A DNA stretch of 64,000 bases. Source: Podarcis cretensis (Eukaryota). Of this stretch, positions 2,595 to 57,299 are shown piece after piece; within the stretch, counting starts at the first letter, position 1; every line of letters starts with the position of its first letter. The position numbers and the translations under genes were made by a program. A model generated the notes under the pieces. The model had not been told where the DNA came from. It did not search any database and saw only the letters and a program-made list of their open reading frames with translations. The stretch spans positions 49,538,001 to 49,602,000 of the forward strand of contig OX638152.1 in NCBI GenBank assembly GCA_951804945.1, in the 5' to 3' direction.

Positions 2595-2960
2595 AAGGGA
2601 GCGGGTGGCGCTGTGGTCTAAACCACTGAGCCTCTTGGGCTTGCTGATCAGAAGGTCACCAGTTTGAATCTGTGTGACGAGGTGAGCTCCTGTTGCTCTG
2701 TCCCAGCTTCTGCCAACCTAGCAGTTCGAAAGCACACCAGTGCAAGTAGATAAATAGGTACCACTGTGTTGGGAAGGTAAATGGTATTTTCATGCACAAT
2801 GGCACTTGTCACGGTGTCCCGTTGCTCTAGAAGCAGTTTAGTTATGCTGGCCACATGACGGGGAAAGCTGTCCATGGACAAAGGTTGGTCTGAAAAGCGA
2901 GATGAGCACCACAGCCTTTGACTGGACTTAACCATCCAGGGGTCCTTTACCTTTACCTTA
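2595..2960 (+). mobile_element. Sauria SINE, full length, older subfamily
   Basis: tRNA-like head ggtggcgctgtgg...gtttgaatc, core gcaagtagataaataggtacc, (ACCTTT)n tail; 14-bp TSD cttacttct(g/c)agta at 2581-2594 and 2961-2974. Confidence 0.93.
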
Positions 2961-6133: not shown

Positions 6134-7349
6134 ATTTTTTATATAAATATTTTATTAAATTTTCAAGATACATAATACAAAATCCCTACACCAAAAAACC
6201 AAAACAAATACACCAAGAAACCATATAAAAAGAAGGAAATAAAAAATAAAAAACAGATACAAAGATATAACTAACTGGACTTCCTCGCATCTCCTTACCC
6301 TGCATTATTTATAATCAGAATATCAGCAAATTATTACCTTATTTCATACCTTATTTTGTACTTTCCAAATATTATACTTCTAAATTTAAAATAATTTTTA
6401 CCAATTGCTCATACGTTAAAATTAAACAAAATATTGTCTTAAATTTTGACCTTTTCTTACTTATAACTTAGTTTTCTATTTTACAAAGCCTATTCGCTGG
6501 AGCTGGTATTTTCTAAATCGTGCAAATACTTAACATTCATACAACTTATAATATTTTTGTAGATAATCCTTAAACTTCTTCCAGTCCTCTTCCATTGTTT
6601 CTTCTCCCAAGTCTCGGATTCTGCCAGTCATTTCAGCCAGTTCCATATAGTCTATCAATTGCGTCTGCCACTCTTCCAGTGTGGGCAAATCTTGTGTCTT
6701 CCAGTACTTTGCAATGAGTATTCTTGCTGCTGTTGTCGCGTACATAAAAAAGCTTCTGTCCTTCTTTAACACTTTCTGGCCGACAATGCCCAAAAGGAAG
6801 GCCTCCGGTTTCTTAACAAAGGTATATTTAAATACCTTTTTTAGTTCATTATAGATCATTTCCCAGAAGGCTTTCACTTTAGGGCATGTCCACCAGAGGT
6901 GAAAGAATGTCCCCTCAGCCTCTCTACATTTCCAACATTTATTATCAGACAGGTGATATATTTTTGCAAGCTTGACTGGGGTCATGTACCACCTATATAT
7001 CATTTTCATAATATTCTCCTTCAAGGCATTACATGCCGTGAATTTTATTCCGGTGGTCCATAACCTTTCCCAGTCCTCAAACATAATGTTATACCCAATA
7101 TCCTGAGCCCATTTTATCATGGCTGATTTAACAGTCTCATCCTGTGTGTTCCATTTAAGCAGCAAGTTATACATTCTCGAAAGTACCTTAGTCTTTGGTT
7201 CCAACAGTTCTGTCTCTAATTTCGACTTCTCCACCTGAAATCCTATCTTTTTGTCCAATTTAAAAACCTCTTGAATTTGGGCATAGTGTAACCAATCTTG
7301 CACCTTATTCTTTAATTTCTCCAAGCTCTGCAACCTCCATTTGTCTCCA
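6134..7349 (-). mobile_element. 5'-truncated L1-clade LINE (ORF2 C-terminus, 3'UTR, A-rich tail)
   Basis: 17-bp TSD tggcttgctgatttttt at 6117-6133 and 7350-7366; T-rich tail on + strand; uninterrupted ORF with CCHC motif. Confidence 0.92.
6530..7333 (-). pseudogene. L1-type ORF2 C-terminal fragment with Cys-rich zinc knuckle (267 aa, no EN/RT)
   Basis: CWKCREAEGTFFHLWWTC (C-x2-C-x8-H-x4-C) and W-rich ARILIAKYWK..EEW, typical of non-mammalian L1/Tx1 ORF2 C-termini; truncated at the element 5' end. Confidence 0.88.
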
Positions 7350-8989
7350 TGGCTTGCTGATTTTTTTTTAATAGCCAGTGTCTATAAAATATATAGTGAA
7401 AGTGTCAGTCTAATGCTAGTAGGCAGGGTGCTCCAAAGTATAGGTGTGGCAACACTAAAAGATTAACTGTTGCTTCTCAAGCAGTGGTGGAGGGAAGCAC
7501 CATCAAGCTCAGCCCCACACTTCCCTTCTCATAATGGAGACAGAATGCCTGAGTACAGTCAAGTATCTTTCACATTTTCAACCTGATCGTAATACACTTG
7601 CATAAGGATAAATTGCTGGGCTTGCTTTAAAACACTAAAATGCACACATTCATTTTAGAAAACTAAAATCAGAATTAGCCTGGAGACACTTGCTTAAAGC
7701 TTACGGTTGACTTGAACTTTGGGCATTTATGCTTCTAGCTCAGATGTAGGGGTTTCAGAGAATTCTGCCAGAAATAGCCATTCCTGCGATCTGGATGTGC
7801 CCTGACAGTGCAATTCTAGGCATGTTTTCACAATCTCATTGTGTACAACAGACTGTGTAGAGGATGTGCAGGGGATTCCAGACACAATTTGTTAAAATTT
7901 GTAATTCTTACAGCACTATCCTATGCACATCTGCTGAAAAGCAAATCTTTATTTTCAGTGAGGCTGGTTCACTGCAGTCATAACCACTTGGAAAACCGTA
8001 TTTCTACAGTCTGTGTCTGCAAGCCAGACAGCATGGTTTGTAATATCTTGAAAGTAGCTTTAGTGGCAAAAACTTCAATATACACAGGTCAAACATGATG
8101 CATGCAGCATACTGACAGTGGTACAGTATTATGGCGCTGTACGCACAAAGCCATTTCTTCTGTCCTTTCTATGTTACGCAGGATCTTCTGTGATAATCTC
8201 TAAATTCTACTTGATAATAAAACTAATTTCTCTACCAAGATTCAACTGACTGCTTATTATAGGAATGGCATTTTCTATCTTTAAAGTTCTCCCCCCCCCT
8301 TCAAAGTAACTGGGGAACTTTTATATTTCTTCAATGCAGGGACCACATAAAACCCTTTTCTAAACACTTCTTCTTAAATCACCTTGCCTCTTAAGAATCT
8401 CCTCAGGCACAGGCTCCAAGAGAGAGAAAAAGCCTTTGACTCCAAAGGACTGATAGATGGATACTAGGCAATAAAAGATGAACATCCTTCTCTGTTTTTA
8501 TTACCTCCCCTGTCAACAGTCTGCATGCTTCAAATGCTGTGTCTTCCATTGGGTCACTCACTTATATGTCATCCTCAGTTGTTGGCACTTACAATAAATG
8601 TCTATTGAAGCTGTACATGTGAAAGACCCTTTACATGTTCACTTACAGGAAACCATCTCTATCTAAATTCTCAACAATGCACCGTCCTGAAAGATTATCT
8701 AGGGCAGTGTCACACTGTGGCTACAATCCTACTGAAGTTAAACTTAAGTTTATTGAAACCAATTTGCTAAAGTGCATCAAACTCTGTGATGAATTGTGAG
8801 CTGTATCTTATGGACATGGCAGGTTCATAGTGGTGCAGTAATAAAACTGCTAGCATATGTGCAAAGTTAAGCAGGGTCCAGTATGGTTTCAAATTGGATG
8901 GGGGACCGCGTGTTAAAGATTCTGGCATTGGCCCTCAGGATACCCTCCAACTTTCCAATTCCATGTTTCTGTGACAGGGATAGACATGG

Positions 8990-31200: not shown

Positions 31201-31256
31201 TCATGTAAACATTTCAGCACAAATCTGAAGCATCACTGAAAATGCATGGGTATGCC

Positions 31257-32205
31257 CAGTGCTTTTTCCCCCTGGGGGGATGCAGGGGTACGCATACTCC
31301 TCAACATTTTGTGATTCCAAGTTTGGCCTCATTGAGGGGCAGTATTTTAATATGAGTATCATGCGAAAGGCTGGGCTGGATGAATCCCTAGCCGGAATTA
31401 AGATTGCCGGAAGAAATATCAACAACCTCAGATATGCAGATGACACAACCTTGATGGCAGAAAGTGAGGAGGAATTAAAGAACCTTTTATTGAGGGTGAA
31501 AGAGGAGAGTGCAAAATATGGTCTGAAGCTCAACATCAAAAAAACGAAGATCATGGCTACTGGTCCCATCACCTCCTGGCAAATAGAAGGGGAAGAAATG
31601 GAGGCAGTGAGAGATTTTACTTTCTTGGGCTCCATGATCACTGCAGATGGTGACAGCAGCCACGAAATTAAAAGACGCCTGCTTCTTGGGAGAAGGGCAA
31701 TGACAGGCCTAGACAGCATCTTGAGAAGTAGAGACATCACCTTGCCAACAAAGGTCCGTATAGTTAAAGCTATGGTTTTCCCAGTAGTGATGTATGGAAG
31801 TGAGAGCTGGACCATAAAGAAGGCTGATCGCCGAAGAATTGATGCTTTTGAAGGAAATCAGCCCTGAGTGCTCACTGGAAGGACAGATTGTGAAGCTGAG
31901 GCTCCAGTACTTTGGCCACCTCATGAGAAGAGAAGACTCCTTGGAGAAGATCCTGATGTTGGGAAAGATGGAGGGCACAAGGAGAAGGGGGCGACAGAGG
32001 ACGAGATGGTTGGATAGTGTTTTCGAGGTTACCAGCATGAGTCTGACCAAGCTGCGGGGGGCAGTGGAGGACAGGGGTGCCTGGCGTTCTCTGGTCCATG
32101 GGGTCACGAAGAGTCGGACACAACTAAACGACTAAACAACAACAACATTTTAATATGAGTAGGGAAATGAGAGTACCCCTAAACATTTTTTTTGAAAAAA
32201 CACTG
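31257..32205. mobile_element. short MITE (cagtgctttt...aaaaaacactg) interrupted by Bov-B
   Basis: terminal inverted repeats; the rejoined sequence is the reverse complement of 32376-32498. Confidence 0.75.
31359..32146 (+). mobile_element. Bov-B LINE, 5'-truncated, RT C-terminal region with an internal deletion
   Basis: GIKIAGRNINNLRYADDTTLMAESEEELK (YADD catalytic motif), KLRLQYFGHLMRRED..RWLD; (CAA)n tail; perfect 15-bp TSD attttaatatgagta at 31344-31358 and 32147-32161. Confidence 0.97.
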
Positions 32206-34697: not shown

Positions 34698-35537
34698 ATC
34701 CATGACAGATGGCCATCCAACCTCTGTTTAAAAACTTCCAAGGAAGGAGAGTCCACCACCTCTCATAGGAGTCTGTTCCTCTGCTGAACAGCTCTTACTG
34801 TCAGAAAGTTTTCAGAATGTTTAGTCAAAATCTCCTTTCTTGCAACTTGAAGCCATTGGTTTGAGTCCTATCCTCCGGAGCAGGAGAAAACAAGCATGCT
34901 CCCTCCTTCATATGACAACCCTTAAGTTATTTGAAGATGTGGGTTAAAGCCTCAGCGCCTAGGAGTTGCCGATCGAAAGGTCGGCGGTTCGAATCCCTGC
35001 GGCGGGGTGCGCTCCCGCTGCTCGGTCCCAGCACCTGCCAACCTAGCAGTTCGAAAGCACCTCCGGGTGCAAGTAGATAAATAGGGACTGCTTACCAGCG
35101 GGAAGGTAAACGGCGTTTCCGTGTGCGGCTCTGGCTCGCCAGAGCAGCGATGTCACGCTGGCCACGTGACCCGGAAGTGTCTCCGGACAGCGCTGGCCCC
35201 TGGCCTCTTAAGTGAGATGGGCGCACAACCCCAGAGTCTGTCAAGACTGGCCCGTACGGGCAGGGGTACCTTTACCTTTACCTTTTTATCACATCTTCTC
35301 TCTGTCTCCTCTTTTCCAGTCTAAGCATCCCCAATTCCCTTAACAGTTCCTCAAAGGGCTTGGCTTCCAGACCCTTAACATCTTGGTTACCCTCCTCTGC
35401 ACAGGTTCCAGCTTGTCAATATCCTTCTTAAATTGTGATGCCCAGTATGGGACATAGTATTCCAGGTGCAGTCTGACCAAGGCAGAATAGAGCAGGACTA
35501 TTACTTCCCTTGATCTGGACATTATACTTCTGTTTAT
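34698..35537 (-). mobile_element. CR1 LINE 3' fragment interrupted by a Sauria SINE
   Basis: peptide [37 protein letters not shown]; collinear with the CR1 at 39211. Confidence 0.9.
34938..35285 (+). mobile_element. Sauria SINE, young subfamily, slightly 5'-truncated
   Basis: B box ggttcgaatcc, (ACCTTT)n tail; near-identical to 41802 and 43399. Confidence 0.95.
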
Positions 35538-39210: not shown

Positions 39211-39828
39211 CATAGAATCATAGAATCATAGAGTTGGAAGAGACCACAAGGGCTATCGAGTCCAACCCCTTGCCAAACAGGAAACACCATCAGAGCACTC
39301 CTGACATATGGTTGTCAAGCCTCTGCTTAAAGACCTCCAAAGAAGGAGACTCCACCACACTCCTTGGCAGCAAATTCCACTGTCGAACAGCTCTTACTTT
39401 CAGGAAGTTCTTCCTAATGTTTAGGTGGAATCTTCTTTCTTGTAGTTTGGATCCATTGCTCCGTGTCCGCTTCTCTGGAGCAGCAGAAAACAACCTTTCT
39501 CCCTCCTCTATGTGACATCCTTTTATATATTTGAACATGGCTATCATATCACCCCTTAACCTCCTCTTCTCCAGGCTAAACATGCCCAGCTCCCTTAGCC
39601 GTTCCTCACAAGGCATCGTTTCCAGGCCTTTGACCATTTTGGTTACCCTCCTCTGGACACGTTCCAGTTTGTCAGTGTCCTTCTTGAACTGTGGTGCCCA
39701 GAACTGGACACAGTACTCCAGGTGAGGTCTGACCAGAGCAGAATACAGTGGCACTATTACTTCCCTTGATCTAGATGCTATACTCCTATTGATGCAGCCC
39801 AGAATTGCATTGGCTTTTTTAGCTGCCG
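39211..39828 (-). mobile_element. CR1 LINE 3' fragment, young, frame intact
   Basis: [62 protein letters not shown]; 8-bp (ATTCTATG)n tail at 39211-39232. Confidence 0.96.
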
Positions 39829-41801
39829 ACCTAAGTGATTGGAGTGGCTTTTTTCTGATTTCCCCTTCCTTCTCCTGCAGTGAACCCTCCCCTGCTGTGG
39901 TCTTATGCATCATCCAGGTGGTACAGGAGACTGCAGAGGGGTGGGAAGCAGGAAAGAATGGACAGAAATTACCGGTACTGCCATGCTCTCTTCCTCCAGC
40001 ATAAGCAGAATTCCACCGAGTGCAAGTCTGGGGCTAACCTACAGAGTGCAATCCCAACCCATTAGAATCAATTCACTTTTTGCTTTTGCTACTGGCTTTA
40101 AATAAGATACAGATTGTCCTCATCTTTATTCTAGTTTTCATATTGGGGCATTCTCATGACCATGACCATGGCCAAGAAGCCAAGAGCAAGAACATAGGAG
40201 CTACACACTTGCTCCCCCTCTTGTCCCTGCCTCTCTTTCCTGCATGGTCCCTTCTCCCCTTCCAGTGTCAGGATTAACCAAAGTGGGCAGATTTGTATGG
40301 GAGAGCAGAGGAGGGAGAAGACCATGTGAAGTCACCATGCGCTCCCAGTCTCTTAAGCATAGTTAAGAAATTAAAATAGGATGTCTGCTCTTGTCCCTAC
40401 TGACTAATATAGTCATAGATATAAATGTAGCACAATCATTTGCTATGAATTGTTTGTCTCACCCCATGGGGTTTACATCCTAGCATGCGCGTTAAGGATT
40501 GCCCCATTAAGTGAACATGAGCTTGTGGAAGAGGATGACTGTGCTCTGTCAAAGGTTTGTGCAGGAGAATCTCTTGGTGGATTCAACTTAATAACAACAT
40601 AGTAGGGATGCTTCGAGTCTGCAAGTGTTTTGCAGGAGGGATTCAACATAGCAGGAAATTTAGGTTTGCAAAAATAGTGTAGATTAAAGCACTCTGGTAC
40701 ACTAGTGCAACAGATCCACTTTAGCTAACAATGTGACTCCGTGCAGTTAGAAGAGTGATGGGGACATGCAATAAAAAGTATGGGATGAATCGAGATTAAT
40801 AGGAAGACATATAAACACCCCACAAACAGATCAGGCTGAATGCAGGATAAACACTCTTAATCATGCAACCTCCCCACAAACAAATCTGAATAAATACTGG
40901 ATAACCCCCAAGTAAGCTTTCTGCAAGCAAATCAGTGCTCCATAAGTAGGTTATCTGGAGAAGTACTAGGATTAGAAATCAGACCTTCTTTTGCAACACC
41001 TCTGATGTGCAAGGCCTCCGATTCCTGAAAAAAATGTTATCATTTTTAATTTGCATTAAAACATAAAGTGATTTCAGATTATTTCAGATGGGGAAAGAAA
41101 TATATTTTTAAAAGCAAAGTTGTAGTTTTAACATTGCATATCCAAGTCATCCATATCCCAATGCATTTCATAATGATCTTCAATGATACATTTGTGTGTG
41201 TGTTGCTCTATTAAGATAGATATATGTGGTTCTTTCCCTGAGGGTGTCCGTGTTATTTCTCCTCTTCAGGATGTCTGCATTGAAGATCATGCTGTCAGCT
41301 CCTGAAGATTTCAGTATGGCTCCCTGCAATCCTTGATTTGCCACAAGGCATTTGAAATCCAGTCTGTGCTTTATTCAAGTAAGTGCATATAAGGTAGAAG
41401 AACTCCATCAACATTCGTATATCCCTTTCCCCCATAGTGACAGACCCATTAGAAGTCCACAGTTTATCTGAGTGAGTCATAACAATATGAGCATTTAAAT
41501 GTTGCTAGTATATTAGAGCATCCATTTTGATGCAATAAAGAGGACAGTTTACCACAAGCTCCATGAACTCTGGACAAAATGAAAGAATTGTGTCTTAAAA
41601 GGATTTGTGTGGGTGTGTGGGTGTGCAGAATTGCAAAATTGCAAGAAGAGGGGAAGTTGGTTTATCCTGAATATTTTCCCATCTACTATGCAATCATACT
41701 GTCAGTGATGCTCCATCATCTCAGGTGTAGATCTTTCCTATCACCTCTTACCTGATCCTTTTAACTGGAGTTTGTATTTGACCTTCTGTATGCAGAATGT
41801 G

Positions 41802-42166
41802 GTGAGACGCAGGTGGCGCTGTGGGTTAAAGCCTCAGCGCCTAGGACTTGCTGATTGAAAGGTCGGCGGTTCGAATCCCTGCGGCGGCGTGCGCTCCCGC
41901 TGCTCGGTCCCAGCGCCTGCCAACCTAGCAGTTCGAAAGCACCTCCGGGTGCAAGTAGATAAATAGGGACCGCTTACCGGCGGGAAGGTAAACGGCGTTT
42001 CCGTGTGCGGCTCTGGCTCGCCAGAGCAGCGATGTCACGCTGGCCACGTGACCCGGAAGTGTCTCCGGACAGCGCTGGCCCCTGGCCTCTTGAGTGAGAT
42101 GGGCGCACAACCCCAGAGTCTGTCAAGACTGGCCCGTATGGGCAGGGGTACCTTTACCTTTACCTT
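41802..42166 (+). mobile_element. Sauria SINE, full length, young subfamily
   Basis: A box tggcgctgtgg, B box ggttcgaatcc, (ACCTTT)n tail; perfect 13-bp TSD tatgcagaatgtg at 41789-41801 and 42167-42179. Confidence 0.96.
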
Positions 42167-43292: not shown

Positions 43293-44273
43293 GTGAGTAA
43301 CCAGTGTGATGCAGCAGCAAAAAATCCTTAATGCTATTCTAGGCTGCATCCACAGAGGTATAGTGTCTCAATCAAGGGAAGTAATAGTACCACTCTATGA
43401 CGCAGGTGGCGCTGTGGGTTAAAGCCTCAGTGCCTAGGACTTGCCGATCGAAAGGTCGGCGGTTCGAATCCCTGCGGCGGGGTGCGCTCCCGCTGCTCAG
43501 TCCCAGCGCCTGCCAACCTAGCAGTTCGAAAGCACCTCCGGGTGCAAGTAGATAAATAGGGACCGCTTACCAGCGGGAAGGTAAACGGCGTTTCCGTGTG
43601 CGGCTCTGGCTCGCCAGAGCAGCGATGTCACGCTGGCCACGTGACCCAGAAGTGTCTCCGGACAGCGCTGGCCCCTGGCCTCTTAAGTGAGATGGGCGCA
43701 CAACCCCAGAGTCTGGCAAGACTGGCCCGTACGGGCAGGGGTACCTTTACCTTTACCTTTATTCTGCCTTGGTCAGGCCACACCTGGAGTAGTGTGCTCA
43801 GTTCTGGGCACCACATTTTATGAAGGATATTGACAAAGCTGGAATGTCTGCATAGGAGGGTGAACAATATGATAAGGGTTTGGAATCCCAGTCTTATGAG
43901 GAATAGTTGAGGGAGTTGGGGACATTTAGCTTGGAGAAAAGGAGACTGAGGGGAGATATGATAGCCATCTTCAAATATCTAAGGGACTGTCACATGAAAA
44001 ATGGAACAAGGTGATTTTCTCCTGCTCTGGAAGCTAGGAGCTGAACCAATGGCTTCAGGTTACATGAAAGGAAATTCTGTCTAAACTTCAGGAAAGACTT
44101 TCTTACAGTAAGAGATGTTCAACAGTGAAACTGACTCCCATGAGAGGTGGTGGACTCTCCTTCCTTGGAGATTTTTAAGCAGACGTTGGCCACCTGTTGA
44201 GATTCCTGCACTGCAAGGAGTTGGATTAGATGGCCCTCACAGTCCCTTCCAGCTCTACAATTCTGTGATTCTA
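43293..44273 (+). mobile_element. CR1 LINE 3' fragment interrupted by a Sauria SINE
   Basis: aatgctattctaggctgcatc..agggaagtaatagtaccactctat|tctgccttggtcaggccacacctggagt..; attctgtgattct tail; reverse complement of the 39211 CR1. Confidence 0.9.
43399..43759 (+). mobile_element. Sauria SINE, young subfamily
   Basis: near-identical to 41802; inserted in CR1 with only a 3-bp (tat) duplication. Confidence 0.95.
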
Positions 44274-53600: not shown

Positions 53601-54689
53601 CAAAATAGCTCTGTGCAAATGTTATAAGAATAGAGAGTGGACAGTTATAGAAAGCTGGAGTTGGAGTCCCCATGAAAAAAGCAGGGTATCCAGGGTATTC
53701 AAATCTACATTCATAAAATCTGTAAGCATATAAGGACCGAATAGACAAGTTTGTGCACCAATTAATAGCTCACCACCATAATCCAAAGAAGAAGCCACTT
53801 TTCTTGTGGCCAAAGCCAAATAACCATCAGATTTAAAAACTGTGCTTCTGCTTAATTTGTTGAACAGTTCACGTTTGTTCCTTATAGGGTGTTTGGGTGG
53901 TTTCTGGGACTTTTATCTTCCTGTGGGGAAAATAAACAGTTCCCAACAACACCAAATTGCCAAGAAGAAGTGTGTACTTACTTTAACTTCCTGTTTTCCC
54001 TTTGAGAGCATTAGAAACAGCACATGTTTACAAAAAGGAAATGCTTGAGTGGTCTTCATGCAATAACCTGCGTGAACATACATAGTGAAGAAAGGACCAT
54101 TTTACATTAAGGATGAGCCATTTCAAATTTGCATGTTTTTCACCCATAATTCTACTCTCTTCCATTTCTTCATTAATCTATATTTTTTTCCAAAAATGCT
54201 TCTCAAGATATATACTGAAAATATGCATGTAATTAGTTGTAATTAATTTAATTAGTTCAACCCCCCACCATGGGTGTGTGTATGGATTTTGGCCACATAT
54301 CTGATGAAACACAGGAACTGGGATGATTTAACAGTGAAGTGAGAGGGATTGCAATTTGCGTTTGTATGTTTCATCTTGCTTTTTTATATTTTCATCTTAT
54401 TTTTTTTTAAAAAAATTAAGCCACATACTTTGCCAGTTGTTGGCAGAGCAACATTACCAGAAAAGCTCTGGTCACTATTAGCACTATGCTTCCTTTCCAG
54501 AGTGTCTCTGGAAATGATGCCAGTGTTCCCTCCTCTGTCCTCTAAAACCATTTAAGGAACTAATTGGACCTAGTCCCCTGAAATAGAACCAAAATGTGAC
54601 TGTGGAGGAAAATAGGGGAAACCTGTTTTTGCCCACCTCTGATTTGTTACTTATTTAAATGTTTAATCCACAACTCCCTGAAAAGAAAG

Positions 54690-55515
54690 TGTCAGAGCTG
54701 CCTCTAGGTCCCAGCTCACAGAGGACCAACACTATGCTGTAGTAATGTACAAAAGTCTTTATTGAAGTTCAGTTTCCATTTCAAAGCCACAGCGTGCAGC
54801 CCTACGTCTTAAACCCTAGATCGGCGAAGTCCCGTCTGAGTCTCCTCCCCTATGACACCAGTTTAAGATCCTAGCCCTGCTCCACCTTTTACGCTGCTCT
54901 CTCCTCCTCTGGGTCCTCCTGCCCGCTGGGGCATTGCCCTTTCTGGACTCTTCCGACGCTGAGTCGCTTAGCTCCTCCCCCTGCCTCCTGCGGGCTTTAG
55001 GACCCGGTTCCCAATCCTCATTCTCTGCTGTCCCGCGCTCCTGTACATGTGAACTTGCCTCTCGCGCCAGCCCAGTGACCTTTCTCCTAACCGTTACACT
55101 ACTTCGGTCACTGCTTCCCTCTTCCGAGACACTGGCCGGATCTGACCTCTCCTCCGTTGTCCGACTTTCTGATGGAGGCGTGGTCAGCCCTGCCTTATCT
55201 TCTCTCCCTGGTGGGGAATGCACTGGCCCCGATCCTTGGGACTCTTCCCCCCCACTCTGCTCTGGTGGGGAAGCTGGTCCTGATTTCCAGCTACTGCTCT
55301 GGGAGTCCCTGCTGCCCCCTTGCTCCTGGGGCGTTCCCCTTGGGAACCCCCTACCCCTGGCCACTGGCGCCCCCTTCTGTGAATCTTCCGATTCGCTGGA
55401 GAGGCTCATGGAATCCCTCGGTCCACTGTCCTCTTCTCCTACGCTCCCCTCGGATTCTTCCCCTTCGCTCTCCATCTCCTCTCTTCCCTGTGCCTCTGCT
55501 CCTGAACCCCTGACA
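54690..55515 (-). mobile_element. solo LTR (826 bp), probably Gypsy/Ty3-type
   Basis: TGTCAG...CTGACA termini; perfect 5-bp TSD gaaag at 54685-54689 and 55516-55520; minus-strand AATAAA at 54758-54763; sharp GC increase. Confidence 0.88.
54816..55475 (-). CDS. putative LTR-encoded low-complexity protein (219 aa; acidic/Ser-rich with Arg-rich C-terminus)
   Basis: uninterrupted frame covering most of the LTR, open from LTR nucleotide 2; motif similarity to the decayed frame in the 61417 LTR; translation unproven. Confidence 0.5.
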   Translation of the reverse strand: MESEGEESEGSVGEEDSGPRDSMSLSSESEDSQKGAPVARGRGFPRGTPQEQGGSRDSQSSSWKSGPASPPEQSGGEESQGSGPVHSPPGREDKAGLTTPPSESRTTEERSDPASVSEEGSSDRSSVTVRRKVTGLAREASSHVQERGTAENEDWEPGPKARRRQGEELSDSASEESRKGNAPAGRRTQRRREQRKRWSRARILNWCHRGGDSDGTSPI

Positions 55516-57299
55516 GAAAGGAAAAGAAATTTATTAAATATATTAATTTATAAATTGGGCACTGTATTTTTCCTTCAGGTATTTAACTCTCTCTATTCAC
55601 TATGTACTTCATTTCCCTCTAAATTCACCCCGAAACACCACACACACACACACACCCTTTCAGTATGGATGTTTTCAAAGAATTAATTAAAATATAATTA
55701 AATTAACACAATGGTTTAATGGCATTCCGAGCTAGTTTCATTTTCACCACCCAGAGCTCCAGCAGAGTGCAAATAGTCAGTATCATGAGGCATGAGGAAA
55801 TGTGAAAGGCAGTTCAATGTATTAATTCTATTTAACTGCAGGGGTCAGCATATCAGTCAGTTATACATCTCAATAAACTTTTCAAAGTAGTTATATAACT
55901 CAAACAAATACACAAAAGAAGCTAATTTCCCCTCTGGAGACAAGGAGATGGAAGTAGCTTTATACGCTAGCGACAGCAAGTTCGTAAAAGTTATGAATGC
56001 TTCAAACTATATTCATTCATCTAAAATAGCATCTTGATTTACAATAGAAAAATAAGGCCCTTTAGCAGTTATGTCCCCTAGGAAGACAATATTATTTGAT
56101 ATTCCTCAGGTCCCCTTCAACCTGCGGTTTCAGGTATCTTGTAAAGAAACACATTTTTTTGCCCAGTCTTTCGCTGACCCATAAGTTTGTTTTCTTTTTG
56201 TCTGTACGGATTCCCTGAATTTCTCATTTTATTTGGATTATATACCTTTGTATGCTTTTGTACTACTGTTTTACTGTTTTATGTTGCATTTTCTTAAAAA
56301 GAAATTAAGCAGTTTATAAATGCTTTAACTGGGTAATAAATATAGAAATTCACCACTCTCTATGGTTTCCTTTCTATGACAGGCAATGAGACTCTCCTTC
56401 CAAGGCTGATTAGAAAAGAGGAATCAATTCTGCAAATCCGGCAGCATTTTTTCTCATTATTTCTCTCTCACTAATACCTCATTGGAAATCATTGTACCTT
56501 GGCTTTGTTAAAATCAGTTATCGTTATGCAAGTTGTCATAAACACATAGCAACTTTTCTTTTACTTCTTATGACTTTTCAGTTTGCCTTTGACCGGAAGA
56601 AACAATTATACCTTATGTATCCTTGATACATTTGACTCATATCAATAGTCCTTGTACAACATCAGCTTTCTTGGATTTACTTGATCATTTGGTGCTGAAC
56701 GTGATCATTTTTGTAAGGGTGCATTTACACAGCACTTTATTTCATTTTCCTGACATTTCCTTACCGGATGATTGCTGTACTTTCTGTGACCTTTCACACA
56801 GCAAGCCAATTTCAAATAAAAGTCACTTCTGGGAATCTACTTAAATCTAGTAGAAATTTAGCACTCATTTCTGGGTAAATGGTAGGTGGAATTTGTTCTA
56901 GAAACAATCTGGTTAACATGGAAAATCACAGGTGTTTTCCATCAAAATGGTGAAATTCTATGCTATATCCTAGCATATAGTTCTTTCCCAACATTTTAAA
57001 TTTAGTGCAACATGGCAGTATATTGATCCAAAAAGCCAACAGCCAATAATATTCCATATATTCCTTCATGAAGGAAGTAAGGTGTCAGCTCTGAGAATAC
57101 TGGTGATTTTGGAATTTAGTTTCTGAGTCAGCTAGATTCAGATTTGTCTTATAAAAAGAGCAGATTGCATTAAATATTGTTGCATGCCACCCAAATATCA
57201 GAGTGGTGTAAAATTCCAGGGATCCCCATCTCTGAATTGTGTGAGATTCCAGGAGTTTCAGGTGCTTACCCAGGGTTCAGTTTCCTTGGAATGAAAGAC

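Follow-up and report, generated by a model that had tools for sequence, protein, structure and literature searches.

An open frame filling the U3 region of a Podarcis cretensis solo LTR is probably the orphaned C-terminal end of Pol of a Tf1/sushi-type chromovirus

Introduction

Retroviral accessory proteins that overlap U3 or are Arg-rich (Nef, Sag, Rev, Rex and Rec) are encoded by separate genes on spliced RNAs. In vertebrate Gypsy elements, the LTRs are generally treated as DNA without coding function.

Chromoviruses whose polyprotein frame runs into the 3' LTR have been described in plants, namely CRM group A, which carries a CR motif, and the Reina-clade elements Bingo1-4 and 7; in CRM, the 3'-LTR part encodes a putative targeting part of the integrase (excerpts of PMC3059260 and PMC3605345). 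The Tf1/sushi group, with its vertebrate V-clade (Sushi-ichi, Amn), is characterized by a CCHC Gag, a -1 gag/pol overlap, the order PR-RT-RH-IN-chromodomain and self-priming, in which the primer-binding site (PBS) pairs with the 5' end of the RNA (excerpts of PMC6317226 and PMC4600332). The integrase of the copia element Ty1 has a large disordered C-terminal half which is dispensable for catalysis in vitro, is phosphorylated by CK2 and contains a short host-contact segment (available sections of PMC8487063, PMC9673352 and PMC10050235).

The DNA analysed here, called the window, is a stretch of 64 000 nucleotides of the Podarcis cretensis genome (contig OX638152.1, positions 49,538,001 to 49,602,000). 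A first-pass annotation had drawn attention to an LTR almost filled by an open frame, and had proposed that the frame encodes a U3 accessory protein. According to the reading preferred here (probability roughly 0.7), the frame is the orphaned C-terminal end of Pol of a Tf1/sushi chromovirus, designated family A, and is selected as a tail attached to the integrase that would act in import or tethering. Plant CRM is the closest precedent for a frame entering the LTR. Family A differs from CRM group A in keeping its chromodomain upstream of the polypurine tract (PPT), where CRM has a CR motif downstream of the PPT in its place. It further differs from CRM in the size of the LTR part (210-232 codons, filling the whole U3), in the use of a self-primer instead of a tRNA-Met PBS, and in its vertebrate host, where solo copies are dispersed. 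The features listed above for the V-clade are shared by family A, but family A has a selected tail of about 360-380 residues after the chromodomain, mostly in the LTR, and its chromodomain has no aromatic cage. The carp protein P0010, unlike family A, ends about 20 residues past its chromodomain. The tail resembles the C-terminal module of Ty1 integrase in its predicted disorder and its 10 S/T-x-x-D/E sites, a likeness for which no sequence similarity is claimed; the Ty1 tail is internal to Pol and not encoded by the LTR. With the retroviral accessory proteins, family A shares coding in U3 and an Arg-rich helix, but its frame is fused to Pol and has no conserved start of its own. A literature search, with the older sushi-element papers (Butler 2001, Gorinsek 2004, Kordis 2005) outside its scope, did not find 3'-LTR read-through, its selection or the motifs described below in vertebrate elements. 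This suggests that, while read-through is known in plant chromoviruses, the vertebrate variant with a selected tail filling U3 is new.

Results and Discussion

An LTR almost filled by one reading frame

The element is 826 bp long, starts with TGTCAG, ends with CTGACA and is flanked on either side by GAAAG, in agreement with the ends and the perfect 5-bp target site duplication (TSD) annotated previously. The features of the element are as follows.

54690..55515, minus strand: solo LTR, 826-bp subfamily of sushi-type chromovirus family A, with TG...CA ends and TSD
54685..54689, plus strand: left TSD, GAAAG
55516..55520, plus strand: right TSD, GAAAG
54816..55514, minus strand: open frame of 232 codons plus stop, probably the C-terminal Pol tail left as an orphan in this LTR
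55473..55475, minus strand: first ATG within the LTR (codon 14, giving 219 aa), not conserved
55098..55160 (ends approximate), minus strand: in-frame segment of about 63 nt (21 codons), present in the 826-bp and missing from the 759-bp subfamily
55077..55094, minus strand: basic patch TVRRKV, candidate nuclear localization signal
54984..55001, minus strand: basic patch PKARRR
54855..54920, minus strand: Arg-rich C-terminal helix RRTQRRREQRKRWSRARILNWC, the main predicted helix of the LTR-coded part
54758..54763, minus strand: polyadenylation signal AATAAA (LTR nt 753-758)

The minus-strand frame is open from LTR nt 2 over 232 codons to a TAG at LTR nt 698-700. The AATAAA lies 52 nt past this stop, where the first-pass annotation had given about 50 bp, and the product counted from the ATG has 219 aa, as it had reported. 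The position of the codon-14 ATG is occupied by Ala in L047/L084-type LTRs, a third type, and by Thr or Leu in the homologues P0001, P0002, P0023 and P0047. The 232 residues include 40 Ser, 32 Glu, 30 Gly and 29 Arg, and the tail was predicted by AlphaFold to be disordered except for the terminal basic helix; the product had been described as Ser/Glu-rich and probably disordered, and this description stands. Both basic patches that had been pointed out, PKARRR and RRTQRRREQRKRWSRAR, were found in the frame. EPGPKARR is unchanged across 11 diverse tails and TV[KR]RKV is present in 11/11 diverse aligned tails. A Pfam search of the LTR frame in either direction returned no family, and an ESM Atlas search with the homologous tail of P0001 returned no usable match.

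The T content of the LTR is low (14%), which makes stops rare. Among 3,000 dinucleotide shuffles, 0.5% reached 219 codons or more in a sense frame and 1.3% did so on either strand; when limited to the first 700 nt of the LTR, the values were 0.8% and 1.8%. The longest frame in the shuffles had a median of 102 codons. The first-pass annotation had cautioned that purine- and GC-rich DNA is naturally poor in stops. For one copy alone, the shuffle statistics are only suggestive of coding; the frame was judged on the data from its family.

A young and abundant family

The right end of the LTR has 4,285 exact matches in the genome (1.5 Gb), against 368 LTR-to-internal junctions found with an exact pattern; most copies are therefore solo. 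Identity to the window LTR was about 99% or better in 39 other scored matches. Among the 30 closest copies, which were picked as best matches and are biased toward intact ones, the same stop is present in 27 and a perfect 5-bp TSD in 23. The family stop ends the frame in 104 of 127 collected LTRs, a set that includes both LTRs of some elements and 28 LTRs picked by protein similarity. Two main subfamilies differ in LTR length, one of 826 bp with 232 codons and one of 759 bp with 210 codons; further types exist. The LTR pairs of full-length elements differ by 0-11 mismatches, so the family is young. From its predicted features, family A is a young, abundant, self-priming Ty3/Gypsy chromovirus of the Tf1/sushi type. 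The window copy itself is an ordinary passenger. Thousands of such solo LTRs contain an orphan frame resembling an exon, which the host could exapt.

Solo LTRs are scattered along the chromosome arms and no narrow target is evident. On contigs C1-C3, 52/87 of the 5' LTR junctions are no more than 1 Mb away from a contig end (1.5% expected), compared with 9/46 for LTR ends followed by TGG. The excess of 5' junctions may reflect targeting, or else full-length copies may survive better where recombination is low.

Several unusual copies were seen. L084 has two unlike LTR types (156 mismatches) and unmatched flanks, and is likely a recombinant of two copies. In L045, L047 and L048, close to the end of C1, LTRs are nested in other family A LTRs. 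Among the 30 nearest solo LTRs, three (L015, L029 and L030) occupy a CATAC/GTATG site, seemingly in the same dispersed repeat. At L004:507-2326, solo LTRs of two subfamilies, independent of each other and each flanked by its own TSD, are separated by about 170 bp. L083, L086 and L072 are two-LTR copies with internal deletions; in L086, gag is joined in frame to the chromodomain and tail.

Pol continues across the PPT into the 3' LTR

Full-length gag-pol elements flanked by the same LTR as the solo copy at 54690..55515 were found. They measure 6.56-6.71 kb and have two LTRs, a PPT and 5-bp TSDs. Their gag (Retrotrans_gag, Ty3_capsid, CCHC) overlaps pol in the -1 frame with a GGGAAAC site. After gag, the Pfam domains of L064 follow the order PR-RT-RH-IN, SH3, which agrees with the earlier assignment of the window copy to a Gypsy-type element. 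The SH3 is followed by a chromodomain, about 150 internal codons and 210-232 LTR codons, and the Pol stop lies about 20 nt into the inferred R region. The chromodomain matched PF00385 with an E of 7.6e-5 and 23 bits, slightly under the cut-off of 25.1; its predicted fold (AlphaFold) has three strands and a helix with a pLDDT of about 90. The three-residue aromatic cage of type I chromodomains is absent from family A (NEV...LIAR...EGA, against YEV...IDW...KGY in family B, described below).

Unbroken frames of 1,562-1,563 codons were found in L063, L064, L065 and L085 (759 type), and one of 1,591 codons in L153 (826 type, the same as the window LTR). In these five copies, the frame is open from a point upstream of the protease, crosses the PPT and terminates at the same 3'-LTR stop. 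Twenty junctions were examined: five are open from the protease, five from the integrase or chromodomain, and ten are interrupted at most 125 codons upstream. The proposal that the frame starts in the lost internal region and crosses the PPT is upheld by the five junctions with continuity back to the protease.

The 826-type PPT junctions are often out of phase with L153 (60/100, counted on the first 100 of 147). The differences correspond to the lengths of several G runs, spread roughly evenly over two of them when read by eye, and both G-run states occur inside the same SNP lineages. This variation fits repeated slippage or assembly error. A single G7 run inside the LTR varies in 6/57 copies, a rate lower than that of out-of-phase PPT junctions. 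Tail-less forms of Pol may be common. No env-like frame was found in the element.

Four Pol clusters of Podarcis muralis match the tail region, the best with 58% identity over the whole tail length, and several of their members end at the equivalent stop. The UniRef entry 'Gypsy retrotransposon integrase-like protein 1' of Podarcis muralis (A0A670KNJ5 and its cluster) belongs to the same family and has the same tail and the same stop; it is annotated automatically, under names that are silent on the tail or the LTR overlap. Given the continuity in full-length copies and the Podarcis muralis clusters with the equivalent stop, the frame of the window is, on sequence grounds, the last 232 residues of Pol. 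Repeat libraries that split the LTR from the internal region would shorten this protein.

Selection on the tail in three families

Over 9 non-independent pairs of natural copies, 7 of which share the window copy, dN/dS was 0.27-0.38 in the frame, compared with 0.93-1.26 when the two remaining sense frames were read. After transition weighting and removal of CpG codons, it was 0.26-0.49. A codon model on 15 intact copies gave a maximum-likelihood (ML) omega of 0.45 (0.35-0.55; 2dL 51.4 against 1) in the frame and 1.6 in shifted frames. Indels between subfamilies measure 3, 18 and 63 nt and keep the frame. The dN/dS and indel-phase check that had been suggested thus came out in favour of coding, with values below 1 in this frame only among the sense frames. 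For RT, dN/dS was about 0.05, so selection is far stronger there, and the constraint on the tail is a loose one. Compared between LTR types, the internal tail segment gave an uncorrected dN/dS of 0.28-0.37, similar to that of the LTR part, as expected of one coding unit. Among 11 diverse tails, 81/232 columns are invariant, and SEDSQKGAP-like, SGPASP, EPGPKARR and WS.AR.L.WC blocks are conserved. About 85% of the LTR would then be selected coding sequence, and it is considered highly likely that the frame is a Pol tail under selection.

Three further families were reached by a search with the integrase SH3 stretch. Family B (L147, L148) has an RT 55% identical to that of family A, a canonical chromodomain and 117 codons extending into the LTR. 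Family C (L151, L152, L165), with an RT 69-71% identical to that of A, extends about 100 codons into the LTR, and family D (L161), seen as a single copy, 67 codons. In the Pol frame, dN/dS was 0.44-0.52 for family B (4 informative of 6 pairs) and 0.41-0.54 for family C (3 of 9 pairs). Three families of one genome thereby show selected LTR-encoded tails. The A, B and C tails have an acidic or Ser/Pro-rich composition, and each closes with an Arg-rich stretch near the self-primer. RRE.R.R.S...[IL]L.W is common to the A and C tails (shuffle p 0.003-0.023); homology was not detected between A and B tails (p about 0.3), nor between B and C tails. Many B and C copies are also interrupted at the PPT. 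In an RT tree built with no named Sushi-ichi or Tf1 reference, A forms a group with C and P0001 (100/100), which B and a Rhineura element join with lower support (94/95).

The frame could also be open by chance in purine-rich promoter DNA, Pol reading through it without benefit. The low T content, the 102-codon median of the shuffles and the many copies out of phase go in this direction, but chance does not account for an omega below 1 that is specific to the frame, has a 2dL of 51.4 and persists after CpG removal, nor for frame-keeping indels and the same pattern in three families. This explanation is largely refuted and is held to be very improbable.

The plus strand carries a second open frame.

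54856..55686, plus strand: antisense open frame, judged to be a shadow of the sense frame

It might be argued that this frame encodes the selected product and that the sense frame is its shadow, because inside the LTR it is open over 220 codons and has an ML omega of 0.55. The two frames share third codon positions. The antisense signal is weaker than that of the sense frame, stops interrupt it in several copies, it has no start codon near its beginning and no link to any gene; this explanation is hardly credible.

Between the 759 and 826 types, dS was about 0.15 over RT, RH and IN and 0.5-0.6 over the whole tail. The jump from the core to the tail and LTR was observed between L064 and L061, L067, L075 and L082. 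These values suggest that the tail and LTR have been exchanged between subfamilies as one cassette by recombination, which would tie promoter evolution and integrase-tail evolution together.

Transcription start and a separate U3 gene

A stretch near the end of the frame is complementary to the PBS of full-length copies.

54827..54837, minus strand: self-primer (LTR nt 679-689), marking the inferred U3/R border and transcription start

The complement between PBS and self-primer is 10-11 nt long in 25/28 5' junctions. A compensatory change was found in L062-L066 (one clade of five, one event) and a further paired change in family C. A search for a tRNA-type PBS (TGG after the LTR) returned only flanking DNA. 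Transcription is likely to start near LTR nt 679, about 20 nt before the stop and past almost all of the frame. With such a start, the U3 frame would reach RNA only from the 3' LTR, and the promoter of the solo copy in the window would not drive its expression. U3 would be used twice, as promoter DNA in the 5' LTR and as coding DNA in the 3' LTR.

Assembled contigs from six runs presumed to be RNA and two of uncertain kind were compared with two full-length copies, of which the internal and LTR parts were both covered. Two contigs from one sample run unspliced from the LTR end into gag through GTAAGT, a donor-like sequence located after the 5' LTR; the contigs show neither starts nor strand. 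No GT..AG joint was present among the contig matches listed on the two full-length copies.

These data bear on the original proposal that the frame is an accessory gene in its own right, comparable to nef, sag or rev. Such a gene would be expressed from a spliced or internally started RNA, with its ATG at the PPT or at codon 14, and possibly also from solo LTRs. Family A and the Podarcis homologues do have an in-frame ATG, located past the G runs and ahead of the LTR, and translation from it would escape the G-run slips of the 60/100 junctions (first 100 of 147); the GTAAGT could serve as donor. However, the frame is continuous with Pol, and similar selection and the 18-nt in-frame indel are found upstream of the PPT-side ATG. 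This ATG is lacking in families C and D and the GTAAGT in families B and C; the GTAAGT also overlaps the self-priming PBS. The codon-14 ATG is not conserved, and the inferred start of a solo LTR lies downstream of almost all of the frame. A separate gene is considered improbable; the first-pass annotation was right on the frame and its origin, and probably wrong on this point.

A putative role on the integrase

In a full-length element, the tail would likely be translated as the C-terminal end of Pol and left on the integrase, where a disordered extension of this kind could help nuclear import and chromatin tethering. The basic patches may act as nuclear localization signals, the terminal Arg-rich helix may bind nucleosomes or DNA, and an FxGF motif just after the cage-less chromodomain may recruit a LEDGF-type host reader. 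FxG[FY] occurs between the chromodomain and the PPT, outside the window, in every copy printed of families A, C (twice) and D, and the cage is degenerate in these families. FxGF is the consensus for binding to the LEDGF IBD (excerpts of bioRxiv 10.1101/624023 and PMC11740969). Checked against this consensus, the copies printed of A, C and D have FxG[FY] upstream of the LTR in a disordered acidic or phosphorylatable context; in family A, it is preceded by Ser/Thr and not by acidic residues. A four-residue motif is weak alone, and the RT/RH core contains two further instances of F.G[FY]. When a LEDGF-type IBD (P0081 385-474) and the FxGF segment of family A were modelled as a complex, the score was 0.01; this run, without controls and by a method unproven on peptides, speaks neither for nor against binding. 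The family B tail holds RRSARL, the core of the HMGN nucleosome acidic-patch motif RRSARLSA (excerpt of PMC12487698). The leads to import and tethering (basic patches, RRSARL, FxG[FY]) are motif resemblances. That the tail stays on the integrase and acts in import or tethering is regarded as slightly better than an even bet. The regulatory role first proposed for the product is plausible, more probably in the form of an integrase-attached tail than of a free RNA-export protein. With such short motifs at hand, target choice by vertebrate chromoviruses becomes directly testable with peptides.

The tail could instead be made within Pol and then released by the protease of the element; as a small basic protein on its own, it might serve, for instance, as an RNA chaperone or as an export factor acting via the Arg-rich helix. 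In families A, B and C, the disordered acidic body ends in an Arg-rich helix, which would suit such a protein, as would the apparent exchange of tail and LTR as a module (dS 0.5-0.6 against about 0.15 in the core). No cleavage site was identified in the tail, however, and only 5/232 residues of the LTR frame are leucines, without an evident export signal. A product limited by frameshifting and packaged into particles would be poorly placed for nuclear RNA, and the corresponding C-terminal regions of CRM and Ty1 are counted as integrase (excerpts of the sources cited above). A cleaved tail is considered unlikely.

The integrase-attached tail can be extended into a more speculative model, which is offered tentatively and is on balance doubtful. 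In lizard sushi-type chromoviruses, the whole U3 would be a gene for a swappable integrase tail, with host-mimicking motifs for target choice: FxGF would capture LEDGF or related elongation readers where the cage has been lost, and the LTR-encoded Arg-rich helix (RRSARL in one family) would grip the nucleosome acidic patch. If true, this would be a case of convergence of a vertebrate retrotransposon with plant CRM in its layout and with HIV in its LEDGF tether, the promoter and the targeting tail being passed on together as a single cassette.

Other repeats in the window

Fragments of LINE ORF2-like frames were noticed at window positions 6530-7381, 31229-31867 and 39290-40033; the last two presumably represent RTE/BovB and CR1 types. 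Dispersed repeats of 300-350 bp ending in ACCTTT units, which resemble Sauria SINEs, are located at window positions 2626-2959, 34924-35284, 41806-42166 and 43399-43759.
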